Assembly (NCBI GenBank): GCA_963717465.1
Contig: OY970340.1
Coordinates: 1,088,001-1,152,000 of the forward strand
DNA from: Candidatus Bathyarchaeota archaeon
GTDB lineage: Archaea > Thermoproteota > Bathyarchaeia > Bathyarchaeales > Bathycorpusculaceae
Direction: 5' to 3'
DNA: 64,000 bases
In this document: in pieces, positions 33,393 to 49,419 of the stretch
How positions within the stretch are numbered: position 1 is the stretch's first letter
Layout: each line of letters begins with the position of its first letter
Program-made: the position numbers and the translations under genes
The notes under the pieces: model-generated
Told to the model about the DNA's origin: nothing
Seen by the model: only the letters and a program-made list of their open reading frames with translations
Database searches by the model: none

Positions 33393-34982
33393 ATGGAGTG
33401 TATAAAATTGAGAGAAGGAACATACATACCTAAAAGATTTTGCCCGCCTATAGCGACAAAAGAGGAACTAATGATAATACACCAAGCAGCAGTGTATTTG
33501 TTAGAAAAAGTTGGGGTTGGAGGCCTTACACCTAAGCTACAGAAAATCTATAAACAGTTAGGTTGCACGGTTGCTGATGAGAAAAAGGGAATCGTAAAGA
33601 TTCCTGAAAGACTTGCAGTGGAAGGCATAGACTCAGTGGCGAGCAGTTTCATTCTGCCAGCGAGGGTACCTAAGGAAGATATCTTTATGCAAGCTGGAAG
33701 CAACCATACCTTTGTTGGAGGTTTTGGCATAATGGCTCTATACTCTACGTGGAATCCAGCAACACGGAAATTTGAATTTCGAGATGGTGTAGATGCTGAC
33801 AACTGGAGAGAACAGAAGGTCGTTGAGTATTTCCCCGAGTATGACATGACTAGCCCCATATACTTACCTATGGATTTGGCTGAGGCTGGTTTGCCAGTGG
33901 ATACTCATGATCTCAACAGTACTATTCAATGCAATACCAAGCACATTTGGCATATTGACGCAATTGATCATATTGAATGTTACACTGAGTTAGCTGCTGA
34001 GGTTCTTGGAGGATTCGAAGAGCTTGCGAAGAGACCATTCATAACTAACCATGGAGATACACCAGGCTTAGTTTACGGCCAAAAAACTAGTGATAGAATG
34101 AGTGGAACTTTGGAAGGCTGGGAAAAGGGCAGACCTCTGCTTATTGATTACACGGATGTTTGTATACCTGGTTTTCAAGGACCCGCCAGCATAACAGGAG
34201 CATATGCAGTGACAGTTGCAACAGCTTTATCGATGACTGTGGGTTTAGGTTTGGGAAACAATGGAGTAGGAAGAGGGCGAATCCCTAACATGACCTATGA
34301 CCTAGTCATGCCTATGGACCCCTACACTCAACAATTAGCAACTACCGAAGAAATATTTAGCAAAGCTTTATCCCTTCATGTGAACTTTTGGCATCGCAAC
34401 TACAGTTGACCAAAAACTACAATGTGGCCCGGACAAGGCATAGGCGGTTGCTCAGGTGGTTCTGACACACAAAATGGTCTAGGAGCTTGGTGGCTGTTTA
34501 ATGCATTCGCAAACGGTACTGATCAGACAGGAGAATGGTCAACAACCGCTGGGCCAAACGGAATCAACATGTGGGGCTATGCTGTATGCGCTGAAATGAT
34601 TAAAATATTTAAGTATTATTTCAAAGATTTCGACTTCTCACCTGCGAGTTTCGATCCTGAAGGGTGGCTTACGAAAGGTCCCAGAGGAGACTTCATGAAA
34701 GAAAAAGAAACTGTGAAAAAAATGGTGGACTTGATGTTTGCGCCGATGCGTCATGGCTATGGCTTATATGAAATAAGGCAATATCTGCGATGGATTGAGG
34801 ATAAACTTACCATGGATGATCGTGCAAACGCTTTAACCCAGAAGATCATTAAAGAGTTCCCTGCTCCACTGCCTCCAAAAGACGTATCTGATAGAATGAA
34901 TGCAATCATAGCCAAATACGACAAGATGTACCAGATCGGCGGCTACACCGTAGACAAATCAGGTACAGGTGCAAGATTCTAA
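33393..34982 (+). CDS. MttB (trimethylamine methyltransferase) superfamily protein with in-frame TGA at 34407-34409 (recoded or nonsense)
   Basis: IHQAA..LLEKVGV, NTKH, GPASITG, C-terminal ...IIAKYD; ORFs 33393..34409 and 34422..34982 are in frame, separated by TGA plus 4 sense codons; followed by a corrinoid gene. Confidence 0.7.
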
Positions 34983-38059: not shown

Positions 38060-38773
38060 ATGGAATCGTTATATAGTGAACTAAAAGAAACTCTGAAGGC
38101 AGAAGATCCAAACAAGTTTGGGGAATTAACCCAAAAAGCTTTGGATGCCGGCGCTGACCCTTATGATTTGTTGAATAAAATCGTAGGTTACGCTAAAGAG
38201 CTTACATCGAAAAGCTGGTGGGCTGGAGGAACAGAAGGAGCGAGCAATGTTTCCGAAAAAGATGCTCTGCTACTATCAGATCTTATTGTGATAGGCGAAT
38301 GCCTCATAAAAAGTACTGGCATTATAAAACCTCATTTGTTAGCAAGCGGAAGGAAAGCGGAACTTCCAGGAAAAATCGTTCTGGGAACTATCGAAGGGGA
38401 TGTACATGATATTGGGAAAAGCCTAGTTAAAACGATGTATGAATCAGCTGGGTACCAAGTTAATGATATTGGCCAAGATATTCCAGTCAAGAACTTTGTA
38501 ATGGAGACAAAAAGAACAAAGGCCGATGTAGTTGGCATCAGTTGTTCCATGTCTATGTGCAAAACAGCAATTCCTAAAGTTGTAAAAGAACTACAAAGAA
38601 TGGGAATTCGAGACAACGTCAAAGTAATTGCAGGTGGGCAATCAACCTTCGAAAGTGATGTGCCACTATATGGCTTGGATGCTTGGGGAGCAGACATGGT
38701 TGATGCAGTTAAAAAAACTGATGAATTAATACGAATACTTAAAGAAGAGAAATTGAAGAAGGGGGTGAAATGA
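38060..38773 (+). CDS. Corrinoid (B12-binding) protein
   Basis: EGDVHDIGK, GISC, IAGG. Confidence 0.9.
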   Translation: MESLYSELKETLKAEDPNKFGELTQKALDAGADPYDLLNKIVGYAKELTSKSWWAGGTEGASNVSEKDALLLSDLIVIGECLIKSTGIIKPHLLASGRKAELPGKIVLGTIEGDVHDIGKSLVKTMYESAGYQVNDIGQDIPVKNFVMETKRTKADVVGISCSMSMCKTAIPKVVKELQRMGIRDNVKVIAGGQSTFESDVPLYGLDAWGADMVDAVKKTDELIRILKEEKLKKGVK

Positions 38774-40045
38774 TGAATATAGAATGGAATTCTGAAGAAA
38801 TTAATCGTGACTATCCCTTGTGGTGGAATAAAGGGCCATTCAGTTACCAATTCACCGCTACGGAAGAGGTTATACTAGAGAAGGCGCGAGCAAAGTGGCT
38901 TGAACGCAAGAAAGATGAACCCATGATGCCTCGTGAACGATGGGCTAAAGCCCTATTTACTGATGAATCAATAGATCGGTTACCTTGTCACAACACAGGT
39001 ATGCACCAGACTGTATGTCGAATATTCGATGGTTTCTGTGATCCACCATCAATCGTATCCATGAAAGATATGATAAATAACCCCAACTTAGATGCAATAG
39101 GACAACTATTATGGTATGCAAAATTTGCAAGCACTTGCGACATGATGTGGCCATACAACTATGGCTTTGGAGAAGAACTGGTGACTAGGAAATTCAGATT
39201 CATCGAAAATGGTCCACCACTGGCTGTGGAGCCTTTTGTCAGGACCAAAGAAGATGCTCTATTCTTCTTAGACAATGTTCCGGAGCCTGCCTTGAGAGCT
39301 GGAACTTGGCCTATATATTTCTGGGAAACTAAAACACTCATGAAACTATGTTCCAGAGATGCCAATAGTAGGATCCACTTGTGGCGGTCCAGTAACCATG
39401 GCTGGCTTCCTGAGGGGAATCAAGGATTTTGTATTGGATATTCGAAATAATATTGAGCTTGCCGAGCTATGTCTCAAGGGTACAACTGCTCTCTTGAAGA
39501 AGAAGATTGACAAACAGACAGAGATACTTGGTCAGCAAATAGATGACACCGGAGAGGGTAATTGGATAACTTGGTGTGACTCAACTAGCTACTTGTCGGG
39601 GGAGGAATTCGCAAAGGTATTTGACATAACCTACGTTGATGCGGTGAAATACTGTGCAAAGAAAGGATGGCAGCCTGAAGTTATCCCTGAAGGGCCAATG
39701 GTTGCTCACGTGCCAATCGCAAAGTGTCTCAGTGAAAACGGTGGTGGTGGAATGTTAGCTTTCAGTGAACATCCAAGCATTGAGGAATGGTATGATAACA
39801 CACGAAAATATGATAATGTGTGGGCTCATGATGCATTTGATAATGTAATGATGTTTTCTCCTGATTATCAAAAAGCTATCCGAGAAGATCTGGCACGTCA
39901 CGCAAAAATATTTGTAAAGTATCCGACAAAAGGACATAGAACCTATTTATCAGTGCCTACCGGAGATCCGACGATACCTCTTTCAGCTATTGAATTTGCA
40001 AGCAAGGCAATACTTGAAACCTTCAAATATCCACTTCAAATTTAA
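38770..40045 (+). CDS. URO-D/MtaA-family methyltransferase-like protein with a one-base frameshift near 39351 (error or pseudogene)
   Basis: M.PRER...DRLP N-terminus, GGP.T.A..LRG, CD; removing one T joins KLC to PEMPIVG; ATGA overlap with corrinoid gene. Confidence 0.65.
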
Positions 40046-42772: not shown

Positions 42773-43089
42773 ACAAAGTGAAAGCATACAATCTCCCTTT
42801 TTTAAGTGTCTTTAAAGGCACTGAACTGACTTGTAAACTAATTTCGGTGTTTTGCTCAAGCCGCTGATATTGATGTTTTTGTGTATTTTGTTGTGACTAA
42901 TTGCTTGATCAACAGCGCGTGCGGAGGAGAAGTGCATAGTCCGAATATGTTTCTAAAAAGGAACAAGAAAATTCGGAGACACTATGTTTTAACAAAACCT
43001 ATAATGCCTAAAAATAGCGAGATAAGGCCTGGTTTTTTTACTAAATGTAAGGCGTACTAAGCGGAAAAAACGTGATAAACCTAAACAAA

Positions 43090-43152
43090 CGCCAATGTTA
43101 AAATAATTTTCACGATATAGGAGGAACTAGTTGTGGTTGTTTAGTAGAACTA
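43090..43152 (+). repeat. ~65-bp direct repeat, copy 2
   Basis: Matches 40916..40982. Confidence 0.75.
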
Positions 43153-43176
43153 TTTAATTTTCTTGTTCGCTGTTAT

Positions 43177-43208
43177 GATCCCGGGTTCAAATCCCGGCGA
43201 CCGCACCA
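43177..43208 (+). mobile_element. tRNA 3'-half fragment (likely Gly-type), att-site relic
   Basis: GATCCCGGGTTCAAATCCCGGCGACCGCACCA: perfect T-arm, 3' acceptor strand and CCA; no 5' half upstream. Confidence 0.75.
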
Positions 43209-43326
43209 CACTCACCACACACTGTATGACGAACAACTAAACGTGTGACAAACAGCTAAACGACTACTAAAAATGAAATTTAGTTCAAATTTACTTACCC
43301 TCACCAACCTATCCACACACAGTCAA

Positions 43327-43402
43327 ATATGGAGTTACCAGACTGGTAGCGCGGTATTTTCTTCTTCCTGCTGTTGCAAACGGTGTTGTATAAGTAGGTT
43401 CA
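43327..43402 (+). pseudogene. Degraded single PQQ-repeat remnant
   Basis: Translates as IWSYQTGSAVFSS/PAVANGVV*VGS with a frameshift and a stop. Confidence 0.6.
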
Positions 43403-43643
43403 TGGCGCACGCGCGTCTAATCCCATAAAGACCTAAACTAGTTAAAGCTTTGGATCTACTAATCATTCTCATTTTTGCATCTATTTTTGCTGCAAAATTC
43501 ATTAATAACCTCAGTCTTGCCTCTTTATTTCATGAAATTCGTTAAAATCTTTTTCTTCTTCATTCATAAGCTGTAAAGTTAAGGTTTTACTACAGTGCGG
43601 ACATTTTAACTCTAAATCAGTTATAATTTTTTCTTCTTAATCG

Positions 43644-43666
43644 AAAAAAACCGACCGTCAGGTCGG
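43644..43666 (-). terminator. GC hairpin plus U-tract after the Mo-enzyme operon
   Basis: CCGACC-TGAC-GGTCGG followed by T7 on the minus strand. Confidence 0.6.
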
Positions 43667-43690
43667 GAGGTCAATCTTAGCAAAAGGACT

Positions 43691-44797
43691 TTATTCCATT
43701 GCACTCATTGGGTGCACGGATAGCTTAGGCATCTCTGCGAGAGCGCCTGGTGGCATGATGTTTGGATATGGTTTCCAGCATCGGATCGAGGTTGATCCCA
43801 GTCCGTTAGTTAGCTTCTTTTTTCTGCCGTCTTTGTAAGTAAAGGTACCTTCGAGCTTATCCCAGTCCAATGCTAAAACTGGAGTATCTGGCACTTGTCC
43901 AGTGCTGCCTGCCAACATACCGCCAGTTACATTTGTGTCAAACTCTAAAACTCCAGTGTCACATTCTGCGACTATTTTGTAATGCGTTGGAACGAAAATT
44001 CCAGCTTGGCGAAGATATGCCCATTCACTGTGTATTATGTCAAATTTAACAACTGGGAAGTACTGTTTCTCATCGACTAAGTAAAGTGACATGTCTTTGT
44101 GGTTGCCGTACTTGAATTCGTACATGCTACCGAAGACTTCATCAAAGTGGAACCACATCCAGTCCTCCCATCCTCCTATTTCCGCGGGGCTTGTATCTAA
44201 TGCGATATATCGTTCTCGGACGCCTTTGCCTTTAAAGTTCACCTTTTTCCCTTTGAGAGTAAATGTGCCTTCAATGGTTCCTGCCCAAAAGTATCCATAG
44301 GCAATGCTGTGAGTTGTAAGCACAGATGGCTTCTCATTTGGTCTCCCGTACCAAGTTGGATATCCTGCACCTTTGTGAATAAAGTCAACTTTCAGCTCGC
44401 TTTTCTTGTCCTCCACATTGTAGTGCCATGTGTGGTCGTCTTTGCATTTGAGATGAAAATCTCCACAATCAATTGCGACCTCATTGGCTGACTTCTTAAT
44501 CGTGAGAGTGCCTCCCGGATAAATAGTCCGGGCTATCGGCGATGTTGGAAAGTCGGCAACCTTGTATATTGATCCAGGTAATTGAGCAACCGTTCCTTTG
44601 TCCGAGGTAACTCTTAGCATGAACATGTCTATCTTCTCCAACTTTAAGGACATCGGTGTTACTCCAAGCCGATACTGTTTGCCATCTTCTCCGAAGACAA
44701 CTGCATCAATCATCCAATCCAAAAAACCTGCCTGGGCGCCCTCAGGAATTCCTGCTCCTTCTACATCTAATGTAACTTCCGGATTTGATACTTTCAC
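43691..44797 (-). CDS. Hypothetical protein, possibly AttH/tocopherol-cyclase-like beta-barrel
   Basis: LDW, GTIEG..TLKGK.V.F.GKG..ER, W.DW.WF; GGAGG upstream of GTG 44797. Confidence 0.6.
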   Translation of the reverse strand: MKVSNPEVTLDVEGAGIPEGAQAGFLDWMIDAVVFGEDGKQYRLGVTPMSLKLEKIDMFMLRVTSDKGTVAQLPGSIYKVADFPTSPIARTIYPGGTLTIKKSANEVAIDCGDFHLKCKDDHTWHYNVEDKKSELKVDFIHKGAGYPTWYGRPNEKPSVLTTHSIAYGYFWAGTIEGTFTLKGKKVNFKGKGVRERYIALDTSPAEIGGWEDWMWFHFDEVFGSMYEFKYGNHKDMSLYLVDEKQYFPVVKFDIIHSEWAYLRQAGIFVPTHYKIVAECDTGVLEFDTNVTGGMLAGSTGQVPDTPVLALDWDKLEGTFTYKDGRKKKLTNGLGSTSIRCWKPYPNIMPPGALAEMPKLSVHPMSAME

Positions 44798-44847
44798 CGT
44801 ATTCACCTCCTTTGAAAATTAAAAAAAAGAGAACTAAAAAAAGGACC

Positions 44848-47157
44848 TTATGGTCCTGCGTGTCCTGTGTTTGTTGGGTATACTTTAGCGAGAAGGGATT
44901 TGAAGTTACAGGCTCCTAGTTCTGGGCTAAGCTGTTCCGGGTCGTCTGGCACTGTGGCATTGATGTTCCAGTCTGTCCATCCATACAGTGTTGGTTCCTC
45001 AGCTGGTAGCTCTGGACGCCACCAACCGTGTTCAGGAGAAACAATCTTTGGATTAACACCGAAATCATACCGTACCTGCTGCATGCATCTGCCAACAGGA
45101 GTCTCAATCCAGACCCATTCGCCATCTCCAATGCCCATGTTGCGGGCGGTCAATGGATGCATCTTAACTCGCGGGAATGGACGTAGATGTCTCATTAAGC
45201 TGAGATGTCGATGCTCGCCATGTTGAGCTTCTTGGAATCTTGCTCCACTGCACATAATCAACGGATAGTCCTTAGCAATATCAGGCGCCGCAATCGGCGT
45301 CCAAGGATTCTCAGTGTAATACGGCAATGGATCATATCTTAGCTTTTCTAGAATGGTTGAGTAGAGCGCGACTTTGCCTTCAGGTGTTCCAAATCTTCTC
45401 ATCAATCCAGTCCCTGGATCAATTTCCTCGTACTTCTTGTATCTTGGCTCGTATGGTGGTACACCTTTCCATTGCTTTATGACTTTTTCACGAGTCCAGC
45501 CTGATCCCTCATAGAACATGTCCTGAAGTTCTTCTAGAGTCTTCCATGGCCAAGCGGTTTTGAGTTTTTCCTCGCCGACTACACCTACAGCAAGATGTCG
45601 GTATATTATGCTGTCATCCTCTAGATCCCACAGGCCAGGTATTTTCATTGGTAACGCGCGGTCACCTGCAATTTCAAACTCGACTTGTCCCTGAGTTGAA
45701 ACAGATCCGTAACCTGATGGTCTCTCAAATTGGCTGGTGCCTGGTAACACGTAGTCTGCCAGCATTCCTTCAGGAGTCATCTGAGCACATTCAATGTAAA
45801 CGAAGAGTTCAAGCTTCTTTAGAGCCTCATACACTTTTTTGATGTTGGGGTAGCATCTCATCGGGCCAATTTCACCAGAAATCATTGCCTTGATCGGATA
45901 GGGTTTTCCTGTTATAATTGCTTCCATTGTAGCTGGAAAATTAGGACCCCTTGTTCCACCAGATGTGCTCTGTCTCCAATATCCTTTGTCTGCACTTGCC
46001 CCTAACAGATGAGGCGTAATATTGGCGTTTTCAGCTCTATAATTCTGGATTCCTAACTGTTTTGCCATTTGTTCACGGTTGGCAATCTTTGCTAATGAAG
46101 CTGTTAATTGAACAGCAGTGTTGAAGTTTGGTTTTGCATGTAGGTATTCTCCGCCTTCTACGTCGATGTTTCCTGTTAAAGCAGGTAGCATGTATTTGGA
46201 TCGGACGTTGCTCATAGAGTTTCTGCCTCCATTTTCTATGGCGTAACCGTATGGGAACGTGCAGGGATTGTTTTTAACTATCCACCTGGCTGCTTCTCTG
46301 ATTTTTTCGGCTGGAATCCATGTGATTTCTGCAGCTTTCTCAGGTGTATACTGCTTAACGCGTTCTTTGAGCTTATCAAATCCAAAACACCATTTCTCCA
46401 CAAACTCGTGATCGTATAGGTCCTCTTCAATGAGAACGTTCATTATTGCCATAATCAGCGCAGTGTCAGTTCCTGGTCTAATCGCCAACCACATTTCTGA
46501 GTTCCTAGTAGTCTCTGTGAACCTTGGGTCGACGTTAAGCATTTTCGCGCCACCTTCCACTCCTGAAACAAATCCCGGCCATGAATACGTCCAGGATTCA
46601 CTTGGGTTTGTGCCGATCGTAAAGATGCCTTTGGTCTTGCCTGGAATTATGTTCGCATATGTTAATCCCACGCCATAGCCTAACCCTAAGGCTACAAACG
46701 TGGGGCCTGCTCAAAACTGAGCTGCAGCAGAGCCAAAGTTGGGGCTACCTATTGCCACATGGAAAGCGGCCAGTCCGATACCTAAGCCACAAGATCGGCC
46801 GGTGCCATGGAAACCACATACTGTTTCATAGCCATATTTTTCCCCTAATTCCTTTACCTTGGAGGATATTTCGCTGTATGCTTGCTCCCAGGATATTTTC
46901 TGCCATTTGCCTTCGCCGCGTTTGCCAATGCGCTTCGTTGGGTACATTGGCCTGTCCTTGTGGTAAATGTACTCTACAGAATACTTCCATTTCTGACAGT
47001 ACGGCCCAGGATTAAATGGGCTTTCCCAGTCAGGTTCAACTTTAACGATTTTACCGTTCTCAACAAATTCAAGCAACTGACAAGAACCAGTACTGCAAAA
47101 ACCGCAAATGCACCTGTGCACTCCATCGTAGCTTTTTGGGTCTTCAATTTCACTCAT
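44848..47157 (-). CDS. Molybdopterin/tungstopterin oxidoreductase (DMSO-reductase family, acetylene-hydratase-like clade) with in-frame TGA at 46711-46713; candidate selenoprotein
   Basis: CGFC....C...C 4Fe-4S motif, KR.GKRGEGKW..ISWEQA, VDPR, IRPGTD.A, ADYVLP, C-terminal HGWW; the two ORFs are in frame: SAAAQF-TGA-AGPTFVALGLGYGVGLTYAN. Confidence 0.8.
46667..46704 (-). promoter_or_regulatory. Candidate bacterial-type SECIS hairpin
   Basis: CCCACG-TTT-GTAGCCT-TAGGGTT-AGGCTAT-GG-CGTGGG, starting 6 nt after the TGA, with a G-rich apical loop. Confidence 0.45.
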
Positions 47158-47212
47158 CAATTTTATCTCCTATTTTTATATGCTTTACACCATGAAAGCC
47201 AATTACTCGACT

Positions 47213-47330
47213 GATATTTAAGACGGAATAAAGGCTAGTTTACTCTTTTGAGACAAAACAAGATAGTTATCAGCAAAGATGCTGGCACTGTTGCATTTCA
47301 AATGTGTTTTTGACATTAATATTGCAATGC
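47213..47330 (-). promoter_or_regulatory. Conserved ~120-bp promoter/operator block upstream of the Mo enzyme
   Basis: Strong similarity to 49487..49605. Confidence 0.7.
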
Positions 47331-47427
47331 GTTTTTTGAACGAATAAATTAGTACTGCAAATCTTTTAAAAAAGGGCATTCTTAAAAAAATAAGCTTAAT
47401 TGCTAAAAAAGGAAATGGGGGAAGAAA

Positions 47428-49419
47428 TTAAATTTCTCTTCCCAATTTGTGACCAAAATACACAGCGTCGCAAATGTTGTGTGGACTGTTAGCATCTCCG
47501 AGACGGAAGAGGTTGCTGTTTTCCTTCCATCCTTGCTCTCTCAATTGCCAGAACAGCGTGTCGTTTGGCTGTTTTGATGTACAGAGTACAAATGTATCAG
47601 CTTCTACTTCAAACATTTCATGGTTAAAGCCGTTCATGAAACCGCCCTTATTCCCATTAATATATGTAAGCAGTGACATTGGACTGAACTTTACTCCTTT
47701 TGACATAGGACGCTCGTACATTTGAGCAAATTGCAAAGTCATGAACGTATCATTGCCGCCAATAAAGTGCCCCGCTGCCCTGATGTCAACAGTTTTTCCT
47801 GCATCAGCCAACATTTCAGCAAGACCTAAACCTTCATCATAACCAATTTGATCATAAAGTATTATTCTGGGACCAAGTTTGTTCATATCAACTTTGCCTG
47901 AGAGTATGTCTTCCCCGTTTACTACGTTTGGTTGATCCCAACCCTCTATGGCACAATATACGCCTGCATTGTCACCATCACGTTTAGGCTCTGCTCCAGT
48001 AGCAACTACCATCACATCAGGATTTATGCTTTTAACAAGTTCAAGTGTAACTTCCTTATTGAGGACAATCTTAACTCCTAACTTGTCACACTGTAACTTT
48101 AGCCATCTCTTGAAGCCATCATATTCCTGTCGTACAGGCAGTTTCATTGCTAAATTAATGGCCCCGCCGACGTCATTTGACTTTTCGTAAATAGTAACCT
48201 CATGACCCCTTGTTGTTGCGATTCTTGCGAATTCCATGCCACACGGACCAGCACCGGCAACCAAAATGTTCTTTCTCTTTGCAGCAGGCATAAGCGTTCC
48301 TATTCCCCAGTATTTCTCTTCGCCGACCGTTGGATTTACAGTGCACATCCTGGCACCAGTTTTCATGCAGCCTTCATTTTCATAAATGCATGGCCTTATG
48401 TCATCTAATCTTCCTGCCTTGGCTTTATTTGCAAATTCAGGATCAGCTATTTGACCCCTGCAAACGCCGATCCAGTCAGCTTTGCCTTCAGCTAAGATTT
48501 TTTCAGCGAATACTGGATCGTTAATTCTCCCTATGCAGCCTATAGGTATTTTCTTTACAACTTCTTTTACAGCTTCAACTCCGTACAGTTGGTAGCCAGG
48601 CTCCATGTACAGTGGAGCAACTATTACGTTTAGCCCTGAGGGTTCGATTGCTATGTCTATGTCCAAAGCATCAACCTTGTCTTCCAGTTTCTTTGAAATT
48701 TCTGCTCCATCCATAGGTCCTATCCCACCAGGAATAAATTCATCAACACACAGCCTGGTAATGACTGCCATGTCACTGTTAACGCCTTCCCTGCATCTTT
48801 TAATTGCTTCGTAAAGATACCTTAATCGATTATCTAAGCTTCCACCCCACTTGTCTTTTCGCCTATTCGTTAAGGGAGACATGAAATTGTGCACCATGCC
48901 CCCATGATCATGAATTTCGATGCCATCAAACCCTGCTTTCGCAGCGTTCTGTGAAACCAATCTGAAACCGTCAAGTGTCGATTCAATTTGCTCATCAGTC
49001 ATCATTGCATTTGAGACCCTGGGATCTTCTGGGTCTACAGTTCTTGAAGGACCCCATCTACCCATCCAAACCCCACTAAGTCCTATTTGGGCGAAAATTT
49101 TTGTACCAGTGCCTGCATCGTGAACCATATCAACTATTCTTTTCAGTGCTGGAACTATTTCTGGCAATGTCCCGCGTGGATATGCAGCAAAACGAGAGGT
49201 GCTGGGACGCCCGTTTTCAAATGGATAACATGAAATGAATCCATAACATATCAGCCCACAGCCACCTTTCGCTCTTTCAGCCTGATAGTACGCCAAATGT
49301 TCTGTTGGTATGCCGTCTTGTATATGTGCATTTGCGTGGCCGGATAACATAATTCTATTAGGAATTGTTACGGGCCCCATTTTCAGCGGAGAAAAAAGAT
49401 ACTTAAATTTTACACTCAA
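47428..49419 (-). CDS. NADH:flavin oxidoreductase (Old Yellow Enzyme family with FAD/Fe-S domain; TMADH/BaiCD/2,4-dienoyl-CoA reductase-like)
   Basis: LFSPL..G.V...NRI, RAKGG.G, AGFDGIE.H, N.R.D.WGGS..NR, IRPCI....C, AGAGP.G. Confidence 0.9.
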   Translation of the reverse strand: MSVKFKYLFSPLKMGPVTIPNRIMLSGHANAHIQDGIPTEHLAYYQAERAKGGCGLICYGFISCYPFENGRPSTSRFAAYPRGTLPEIVPALKRIVDMVHDAGTGTKIFAQIGLSGVWMGRWGPSRTVDPEDPRVSNAMMTDEQIESTLDGFRLVSQNAAKAGFDGIEIHDHGGMVHNFMSPLTNRRKDKWGGSLDNRLRYLYEAIKRCREGVNSDMAVITRLCVDEFIPGGIGPMDGAEISKKLEDKVDALDIDIAIEPSGLNVIVAPLYMEPGYQLYGVEAVKEVVKKIPIGCIGRINDPVFAEKILAEGKADWIGVCRGQIADPEFANKAKAGRLDDIRPCIYENEGCMKTGARMCTVNPTVGEEKYWGIGTLMPAAKRKNILVAGAGPCGMEFARIATTRGHEVTIYEKSNDVGGAINLAMKLPVRQEYDGFKRWLKLQCDKLGVKIVLNKEVTLELVKSINPDVMVVATGAEPKRDGDNAGVYCAIEGWDQPNVVNGEDILSGKVDMNKLGPRIILYDQIGYDEGLGLAEMLADAGKTVDIRAAGHFIGGNDTFMTLQFAQMYERPMSKGVKFSPMSLLTYINGNKGGFMNGFNHEMFEVEADTFVLCTSKQPNDTLFWQLREQGWKENSNLFRLGDANSPHNICDAVYFGHKLGREI

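Follow-up and report, generated by a model that had tools for sequence, protein, structure and literature searches.

An intragenic hairpin behind an in-frame UGA of an archaeal molybdenum/tungsten oxidoreductase gene, a likely local signal for selenocysteine recoding in Bathyarchaeia

The stretch of DNA analysed here (64,000 nt of contig OY970340.1 from a Candidatus Bathyarchaeota archaeon; hereafter the window) carries on its minus strand a gene of the molybdenum/tungsten bis(pyranopterin guanine dinucleotide) (Mo/W-bisPGD, or molybdopterin) oxidoreductase family. A single in-frame UGA, codon 150, is the sole interruption of its frame, and the mRNA can fold into a hairpin shortly behind it. 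We examined this UGA as a predicted selenocysteine (Sec, U) codon and the hairpin as a candidate Sec insertion sequence (SECIS). The elements are, in window coordinates:

44848..47160, minus strand: Mo/W-bisPGD oxidoreductase gene, 770 codons from the TTG at 47160, translated with TGA as U
46711..46713, minus strand: UGA codon, predicted selenocysteine, at the position of the Mo/W-ligand Cys in homologues
46705..46710, minus strand: spacer of 6 nt, GCAGGC, encoding Ala-Gly and separating the UGA from the hairpin base, from sequence and fold
46667..46704, minus strand: 38-nt hairpin, from fold, covariation, synonymous-site conservation and absence from Cys homologues
46697-46704, minus strand: hairpin 5′ lower arm CCCACGUU
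46696, minus strand: bulged U
46689-46695, minus strand: hairpin 5′ upper arm GUAGCCU
46682-46688, minus strand: hairpin loop UAGGGUU, beginning 22 nt after the UGA
46675-46681, minus strand: hairpin 3′ upper arm AGGCUAU
46667-46674, minus strand: hairpin 3′ lower arm GGCGUGGG

The oxidoreductase starts at the TTG at 47160, with an ATG one codon further in at 47157. Its product contains the Pfam domains Molybdop_Fe4S4, Molybdopterin and Molydop_binding, all three above cut-off, and the Cys/Sec position at the metal ligand (U150), which together place it in the Mo/W-bisPGD family. No narrower assignment was reached: PhsA and Fdh-alpha were the top NCBIfam models, both far under cut-off, and no equivalog cut-off was attained. 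No signal peptide was noted in the translation. The genome is assembled as one contig of 3.05 Mb with 40% G+C, and TGA is an ordinary stop in it, terminating 350 of 1381 long open frames.

A sequence-only reading of the locus had proposed the hairpin, with its 6-nt gap, its two stems, G-U pairs, bulged U and a loop 22 nt from the UGA, and all of these features were confirmed at 46667-46704. The lower stem CCCACGUU/GGCGUGGG contains two G-U pairs and the encoded peptide is P-T-F-V-A-L-G-L-G-Y-G-V-G. The minimum free energy (MFE) over 62 nt is -22.2 kcal/mol, as compared to a mean of -15.9 for dinucleotide shuffles (z -2.29, 6 of 200 as stable). When 57-nt segments were taken behind 1500 random in-frame positions in long open reading frames (ORFs) of the same genome (mean -8.2, sd 3.6, minimum -21.2), the site, at -22.5, exceeded all of them.

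The gene belongs to a large set of paralogues. Eleven copies in the genome, including that of the window, have TGA at the same site, ten of them at 70–78% protein identity and one at 41%. In the coordinates of the studied genome (G000), the ten further UGA copies are located at:

G000:C1 122780-125092
G000:C1 130832-133145
G000:C1 478740-481025
G000:C1 616633-618946
G000:C1 1211175-1213487
G000:C1 1822105-1824351
G000:C1 2054732-2057047
G000:C1 2376589-2378886
G000:C1 2494131-2496443
G000:C1 2797292-2799584

Eight copies are intact over ~770 codons; the three others, near 132 kb, 617 kb and 2799 kb, have frameshifts or extra stops. A C-terminal oxidoreductase fragment was also observed at G000:C1 1076150-1076551.

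The hairpin is kept after the 6-nt spacer in 11/11 TGA copies (-17.1 to -24.5 kcal/mol, 63 nt), with a UAGGGUU loop in the window copy and UAGGAUU in most paralogues; the Cys paralogue found in the genome at 31% identity has no hairpin (-9.1). In the 11-sequence alignment, 89% of cells are paired, against 23–47% when the 3′ partners were slid. Five pairs are altered on both sides, as many as in only 1 of 500 shuffles, and the covariation score (0.187 versus 0.120) was reached in none of 500. One compensatory change, UUA to CUA together with UUA to UUG, both Leu, occurs in two copies. The 41%-identical copy forms a CCCAACG/CGUUGGG stem in a register of its own, and in the copy p2799, where the peptide TGLELNF replaces ALGLGY, a 10-bp lower stem is kept (-20.5, codon-resampling z -3.3). 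When the ten close copies are compared, synonymous differences amount to 0.23 in the hairpin codons and to 0.44 in the 570 others, and no other of the 572 windows along the gene scores as low. All ten copies have the same CCC ACG and GGC GTG codons; of these, CCC, ACG and GUG are rare (15–16% usage each). Judged from these alignments, the association of conservation with compensatory change is a mark of selection on the RNA.

We then compared TGA-bearing and Cys genes across homologues. The column of U150 is an invariant Cys in 27 full-length homologues. Within the class, 17 of 400 sampled genomes hold oxidoreductase homologues (35–43% identity), and the aligned codon is TGC or TGT in 24 of 26 rows and CGT (Arg) in two, the 26 rows including two repeats from overlapping loci; no hairpin is shared among them. 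At 157 distant loci, drawn as relatives of 29–46% identity from genome and metagenome collections, the aligned codon is TGC in 126 cases and TGT in 27 (153 Cys), another codon in four and TGA in none. The closest database proteins (65–91% identity) are 560–607 aa long and annotated from just behind the UGA, with the exception of one 442-aa fragment, encoded in this genome. No oxidoreductase match at E<=1e-50 was obtained in 40 relatives, 24 of which are of the same genus. All Sec copies form one clade in a FastTree phylogeny with midpoint root, a result given as topology without branch support. In this comparison, which had been suggested with the sequence-only reading, the hairpin distinguishes the two kinds of gene: it covaries in the 11 TGA copies and, as a shared element, is absent from the Cys homologues. 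Raw MFE was uninformative as a test against bacterial Cys homologues, since their higher G+C brings their mean to -17.8.

The genome is equipped for Sec decoding of the archaeal type. It contains two tRNA-Sec genes (71.8 and 61.8 bits, 97% identical), the first adjoining a SepSecS gene, as well as SelD and two ORFs in which PSTK is fused to the archaeal elongation factor aSelB (KTI12/PSTK, GTP_EFTU, D2 and aSelB_III domains), 54% identical to each other. No match to SelA reached cut-off in the genome, and the SelB winged-helix domain (SelB-wing_3, PF09107) had no match in it either, while an E. coli control was positive; the match to the selB model is confined to its positions 2–338. The presence of SepSecS and PSTK-aSelB and the failure to find SelA or the SelB winged helix argue against a bacterial-type decoding via a SECIS-binding SelB. 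The proposal of such a decoding in this archaeon therefore stands as far as placement is concerned, in the ORF and just after the UGA, and does not stand for the machinery, which is archaeal. Of 401 genomes belonging to the class, 12 have a SepSecS above cut-off, and a full-length PSTK-aSelB fusion was found in 10/10 other SepSecS-positive genomes tested. In the databases, at least 390 proteins match the fusion at E<=1e-20, and those relatives that are named bear the label Candidatus Bathyarchaeota or Bathyarchaeia. Passages of two published studies report the fusion for Bathyarchaeota and one Archaeoglobus (PMC8762117, PMC9499178). With this machinery at hand and Cys at the aligned position, the UGA at 46711-46713 is very probably read as selenocysteine.

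The second fusion (G000:C1:2826283-2830227; L009 1081-3273, minus strand) lies beside the second tRNA-Sec (L002 1501-1588), which carries a compensatory acceptor-stem change. Its GTPase motifs look degenerate (DLPGH to EMPGN, NKID to SKID, loss of the switch-I Thr). In the 10 related Sec-using genomes no second full copy occurs; that of G401 includes, where a contig ends, a C-terminal fragment with 54% identity.

The arrangement of UGA, short spacer and hairpin is not restricted to the oxidoreductase. The HdrA-MvhD fusion gene contains two UGAs, in the motifs DCSIU and CNWU, 1410 nt apart, and each is followed here by a 6-nt spacer and an unrelated hairpin of its own (-25.8 and -23.0). Both sites have TGA, 6-nt spacer and hairpin in eight genomes of two genera (-20.7 to -27.4 and -22.7 to -26.9, respectively). 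Cys rows with nearly the same peptide are without hairpin (14 rows, -5.6 to -15.4, at the first site and 11 rows, -10.8 to -20.6, at the second), and at the second site the difference between Sec and Cys forms lies mostly in synonymous codons. In related genomes (L148/L151 in G259:C9 and L146/L152 in G247:C23), a Sec-type HdrA-MvhD gene adjoins a Cys-type paralogue without stops (67–75% identical to the query), an arrangement which recalls the Sec/Cys isoenzyme pairs of Methanococcus.

The SelD gene of G000 has a UGA at codon 14. Sec-type SelD genes of G039 and G075, two genomes belonging to other families within the class, have a 6-nt spacer and a stem, whereas those of G000, G247 and G259 have in common a long stem from 9 nt after the UGA, in which GAG occupies in the Sec forms the place where all four Cys forms have GAA. 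Another gene encodes a 412-aa protein (L116) with two UGAs, the second of which is followed by a hairpin (-19.4). Pfam gives no family for this protein and a provisional label as ‘URO-D-like’ was dropped. A paralogue of it lies in the window at 38770-40045 (plus strand), behind a gene for a B12-binding corrinoid protein (38060-38773). It is split into the overlapping frames 38770-39450 and 39359-40045, which could reflect a frameshift, an assembly error or a pseudogene, and has Cys (GSTCGGP) where the first UGA stands in the 412-aa protein.

Genome-wide, a 6-nt-spaced hairpin follows 15 of 1390 open-frame TGA triplets (1.08%), as compared to 0.12–0.21% for six other triplets, and 12 of these 15 are homology-supported Sec sites. 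The three others (C1:1284627, 1928340 and 1049019) were rejected, their frames being of low complexity and non-coding-looking. A de novo screen for selenoproteins by codon scores yielded 240 candidates, most of which are neighbouring genes sharing a frame. The selenoproteome may be larger than the genes named and verified here. UAGGAU was considered as a shared loop motif and dropped: the Mo and HdrA hairpins both contain it, though not at the same place in the structure.

We also searched for a SECIS in the untranslated regions (UTRs). The flanks of the oxidoreductase gene contain:

47215..47222, minus strand: TATA-like box cttaaata, ~55–62 nt upstream of the start codon, putative promoter element
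43691..44806, minus strand: downstream ORF of 371 aa from the ORF list, beginning 41 nt past the oxidoreductase stop

The position of the TATA-like box, with that of a GGAG at 47167-47170 upstream of the start, indicates a short 5′ leader without room for a 5′-UTR SECIS such as that of M. jannaschii fdhA. A conserved upstream block was considered as such an element and rejected, as it consists of the TATA-like box and the GGAG with a short leader and not of a structure. On the 3′ side, the start of the 371-aa ORF leaves almost no 3′ UTR directly behind the oxidoreductase. Rfam gave no match in the whole window at gathering thresholds, and at E<=10 no SECIS family in window 43000-47500 or in 60.6 kb of Sec loci, with a set that includes eukaryotic SECIS models and no dedicated Asgard model. 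A simplified GAA_A/SSS pattern has eight occurrences in the genome, all of them outside the interval from -400 to +1500 around 11 Sec genes. No sequence is common to the 3′ flanks of the oxidoreductase paralogues, and those of HdrA-MvhD orthologues have no block in common with G000, a weak negative since stop-finding was rough. The pattern and Rfam scans agree with the sequence-only reading, in which no archaeal-type SECIS had been seen past the stop.

The 371-aa ORF has no Pfam family and no paralogue within the genome, so that the other ten oxidoreductase copies are without this partner. Upstream regions of several paralogues have in common with the window (47215-47260, minus strand) a block ttttg-tNNcaaaa followed by cttaaata, which may represent a family-wide operator plus TATA box. 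Two further observations were made in the window. At 43133-43205 (plus strand), a tRNA-like match scores 26.9 bits, below the Rfam gathering score of 29, and was not called by ARAGORN in a whole-genome run. An MttB-superfamily gene (33393-34982, plus strand) has one in-frame TGA at 34407-34409, codon 339 (HRNYSU PKTTMWPG), where a genome paralogue has Thr, not Cys, and where no 6-nt-spaced hairpin follows (57-nt MFE -10.9); the gene may be a pseudogene, contain a readthrough site or be something else.

From these observations, we consider it likely that the hairpin serves archaea of the Bathyarchaeia type as a local signal for Sec recoding inside the ORF, and that it is bacterial only in where it is placed; recoding is the function that we infer for it. 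Each Sec-UGA having its own hairpin (11 paralogues, both HdrA-MvhD UGAs, SelD and at least one UGA of the 412-aa protein), the signal would act locally. As the hairpin starts only after the 6-nt spacer, it would be intact with the UGA in the A site, and would then lie where the mRNA enters the small subunit, a geometry known from frameshift stimulators and from the bacterial SelB-ribosome structure. There, it may delay termination, bring in the archaeal Sec elongation factor, or do both. The factor would be, in this lineage, the PSTK-aSelB fusion carrying Sec-tRNA(Sec), and Sec would be inserted at the metal-ligand position of the oxidoreductase. The hairpin might be read by this factor or specifically by its PSTK module, by some other protein, or by the ribosome on its own.

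Several observations weigh against this interpretation. Stability of the hairpin relative to codon-shuffled controls, suggested with the initial description, proved better than average but only moderately so: with the peptide fixed and codons drawn from genome usage, z is -2.08 and 26 of 1000 sequences are as stable, and across the paralogues z spans -1.2 to -3.3. This modest score can be attributed to the peptide GPT..ALGLGYGVG, which itself encodes complementary codons. Single-sequence statistics are thus only moderate; the case for the hairpin rests on comparison. There, the conservation counts come from 11 paralogous copies, of which three are broken, and are thus not independent events. 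Hairpins of the same geometry follow other triplets at a similar raw rate (8–12 per 10,000), and the hairpins of different gene families share no visible loop or bulge motif, a finding easier to reconcile with a passive structure than with a specific binding site. The rule also has exceptions: in the SelD of G000, the 60 nt after the UGA contain no hairpin with 6-nt spacing (-9.6), and the stem that is present starts at 9 nt and spans ~88 nt, and the first UGA of the 412-aa protein is without a convincing one. No mRNA-binding domain was found in the aSelB encoded here, and none is known for aSelB. Finally, the genome is scored as 88% complete, and the UTR scans consisted of Rfam and one simplified pattern, which a UTR element of a new type would escape.

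Some of these points would be expected if the hairpin were only an accessory enhancer, comparable to the eukaryotic Sec redefinition element (SRE), with a true but undescribed SECIS in a UTR or elsewhere in the operon. We hold this to be unlikely, but several points speak for it: the 6-nt spacing matches that of the SEPN1 SRE and of readthrough and frameshift stimulators, and the lack of a common motif, the aSelB without known RNA-binding domain and the two sites that break the spacing rule would all suit a helper. The placement in UTRs of all characterised archaeal SECIS, as stated in parts of two articles (PMC13188914, PMC11227280), would suit it as well. However, neither Rfam, nor the eaSECIS pattern, nor flank conservation provided a UTR candidate. 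Moreover, hairpins are present at nearly every Sec-UGA examined and not at a subset, one for each UGA, even two in one HdrA-MvhD gene, whereas UTR SECIS serve several UGAs, according to a section of PMC11227280. It is much less probable that the structure is a by-product of a Gly/Pro-rich peptide or serves another role such as mRNA stability, with no recoding, the UGA copies being pseudogenes or otherwise read through. Codon-resampled sequences do still average -14 to -15 kcal/mol and three copies are frameshifted, but a by-product does not explain why the synonymous sites of the hairpin are the most conserved in the gene, nor the compensatory changes. Neither does it explain why, at the same spacing, hairpins without relation to one another occur in unrelated Sec genes and not in their Cys twins, why eight copies remain intact, or why a complete Sec machinery is present.

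The other possibility raised by the sequence-only reading was a bacterial import. Taken to mean that a selenoprotein gene arrived from bacteria along with its SECIS and relies on a decoding system of the bacterial type, it deserves next to no credence. The protein family is widespread in bacteria and the hairpin satisfies most constraints of the bacterial model (7-nt loop, 7-bp upper stem, 22 nt, MFE -22), but TGA is absent at the site from the 157 distant homologues, which are mostly bacterial. The phylogeny of the enzyme, envisaged earlier as a check on import, speaks against it by grouping the Sec copies in a single clade, and the closest same-class Cys homologues (42–43% identity) are as near as the best database hits (43–44%). 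SelA and the SelB winged-helix domain were not found in the genome, and the core archaeal genes for HdrA-MvhD and SelD obey the same hairpin rule in several related genomes.

The local recoding signal that we favour could also be the expression of a more general system. In PSTK-aSelB archaea (Bathyarchaeia and kin), a sequence-unspecific hairpin two codons past the UGA might constitute a third kind of SECIS and the only cis signal, read by the mRNA entrance of the ribosome or by the fused PSTK module in place of SelB winged helices or SBP2. The PSTK domain, which already binds an RNA helix of tRNA-Sec, would then have a second role as reader of the mRNA. This extension is speculative and we give it little chance of being correct as it stands. 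If it were true, local in-ORF signalling would be common to bacteria and one archaeal lineage, and the question of the ancestral placement would be reopened.

Reviews of 2022–2026 distinguish, in the sections concerned, two kinds of Sec decoding, the bacterial one with an in-ORF element and SelB, and the archaeal/eukaryotic one with a UTR element, whose reader in archaea they give as unknown. An archaeal lineage combining PSTK/SepSecS/aSelB chemistry with one local hairpin per UGA would break this division. A local signal would provide a simple rule, UGA plus 6 nt plus hairpin, for locating selenoproteins now truncated by annotation, as are the nearest database entries for this enzyme, fragments of 596–607 aa starting past the UGA, and would account for the spreading of a Cys-to-Sec switch through 11 paralogues without a UTR element. 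It would also offer a compact, portable archaeal Sec cassette for testing and bear on the evolution of SECIS placement. The Mo/W oxidoreductase family would be added to the archaeal selenoproteome; it is not among the seven selenoprotein families in the list given by an Asgard survey.

The hairpin can be compared with three known types of cis elements. Like a bacterial SECIS, it is found within the ORF immediately past the Sec-UGA, each UGA has one such element, and the peptide downstream is constrained. In E. coli fdhF, the prototype of bacterial SECIS, the lower stem begins at the UGA, whereas here the whole hairpin follows a fixed 6-nt spacer. The bacterial reader, SelB with C-terminal winged helices, was not found here, and Sec would be made via PSTK/SepSecS, not SelA. 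The published bacterial model, as far as its description in PMC13188914 goes, specifies a loop of 3–9 nt, an upper stem of 4–16 bp, an MFE <= -7.5 and a UGA-loop distance of 16–37 nt, all within reach of the present hairpin (7 nt, 7 bp, -22.2 and 22 nt, respectively). It also specifies a G in the first two loop positions, which the MFE loop UAGGGUU does not have; a loop of this kind appears only if an A-U pair closes a GGG/GGA triloop across a U-U mismatch, which is not the MFE form.

In position and spacing, the hairpin resembles the SRE. In eukaryotic SEPN1 and similar genes, this in-ORF stem-loop lies ~6 nt after the UGA, likely at the ribosomal mRNA entrance, works alongside a 3′-UTR SECIS and is found in few genes only. 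In the present case, hairpins accompany almost all Sec-UGAs, and the UTR searches, which an element of a new type would escape, yielded no SECIS. With the euryarchaeal eaSECIS (Methanococcus type) and the Asgard elements, the hairpin shares the service of an archaeal-type Sec synthesis (PSTK, SepSecS, aSelB). Archaeal SECIS are stated to lie in 3′ UTRs, and eaSECIS and Asgard eSECIS-like elements are described as located in the 3′ UTR (rarely the 5′ UTR), with a GAA_A bulge or an AUGA/GA quartet, and as able to serve several UGAs, in the relevant parts of PMC13188914 and PMC11227280. An eaSECIS further has three S-S pairs below its apical loop; in the eSECIS-like elements the quartet is of the non-Watson-Crick kind and the apical loop contains AAR. 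By comparison, the present hairpin is in the ORF and has neither the GAA_A bulge nor the AUGA...GA quartet. Rfam, whose models cover eukaryotic SECIS without one dedicated to Asgard elements, gave nothing at E<=10 over 4.5 kb and 60.6 kb.

No paper on an in-ORF SECIS or helper hairpin in archaea was found in full-text searches of the literature, as distinct from the supplements of PMC8762117 and PMC11227280, which could bear on this point. Mukai et al. 2022 (PMC8762117) discuss the PSTK-aSelB fusion as a protection against SepCysS crosstalk, in a main text where the word SECIS does not occur. The fusion described here is alike, and to it are added a cis signal as well as a second, divergent fusion with a second tRNA-Sec. 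Placement after the UGA inside the ORF has so far been described only for bacteria.

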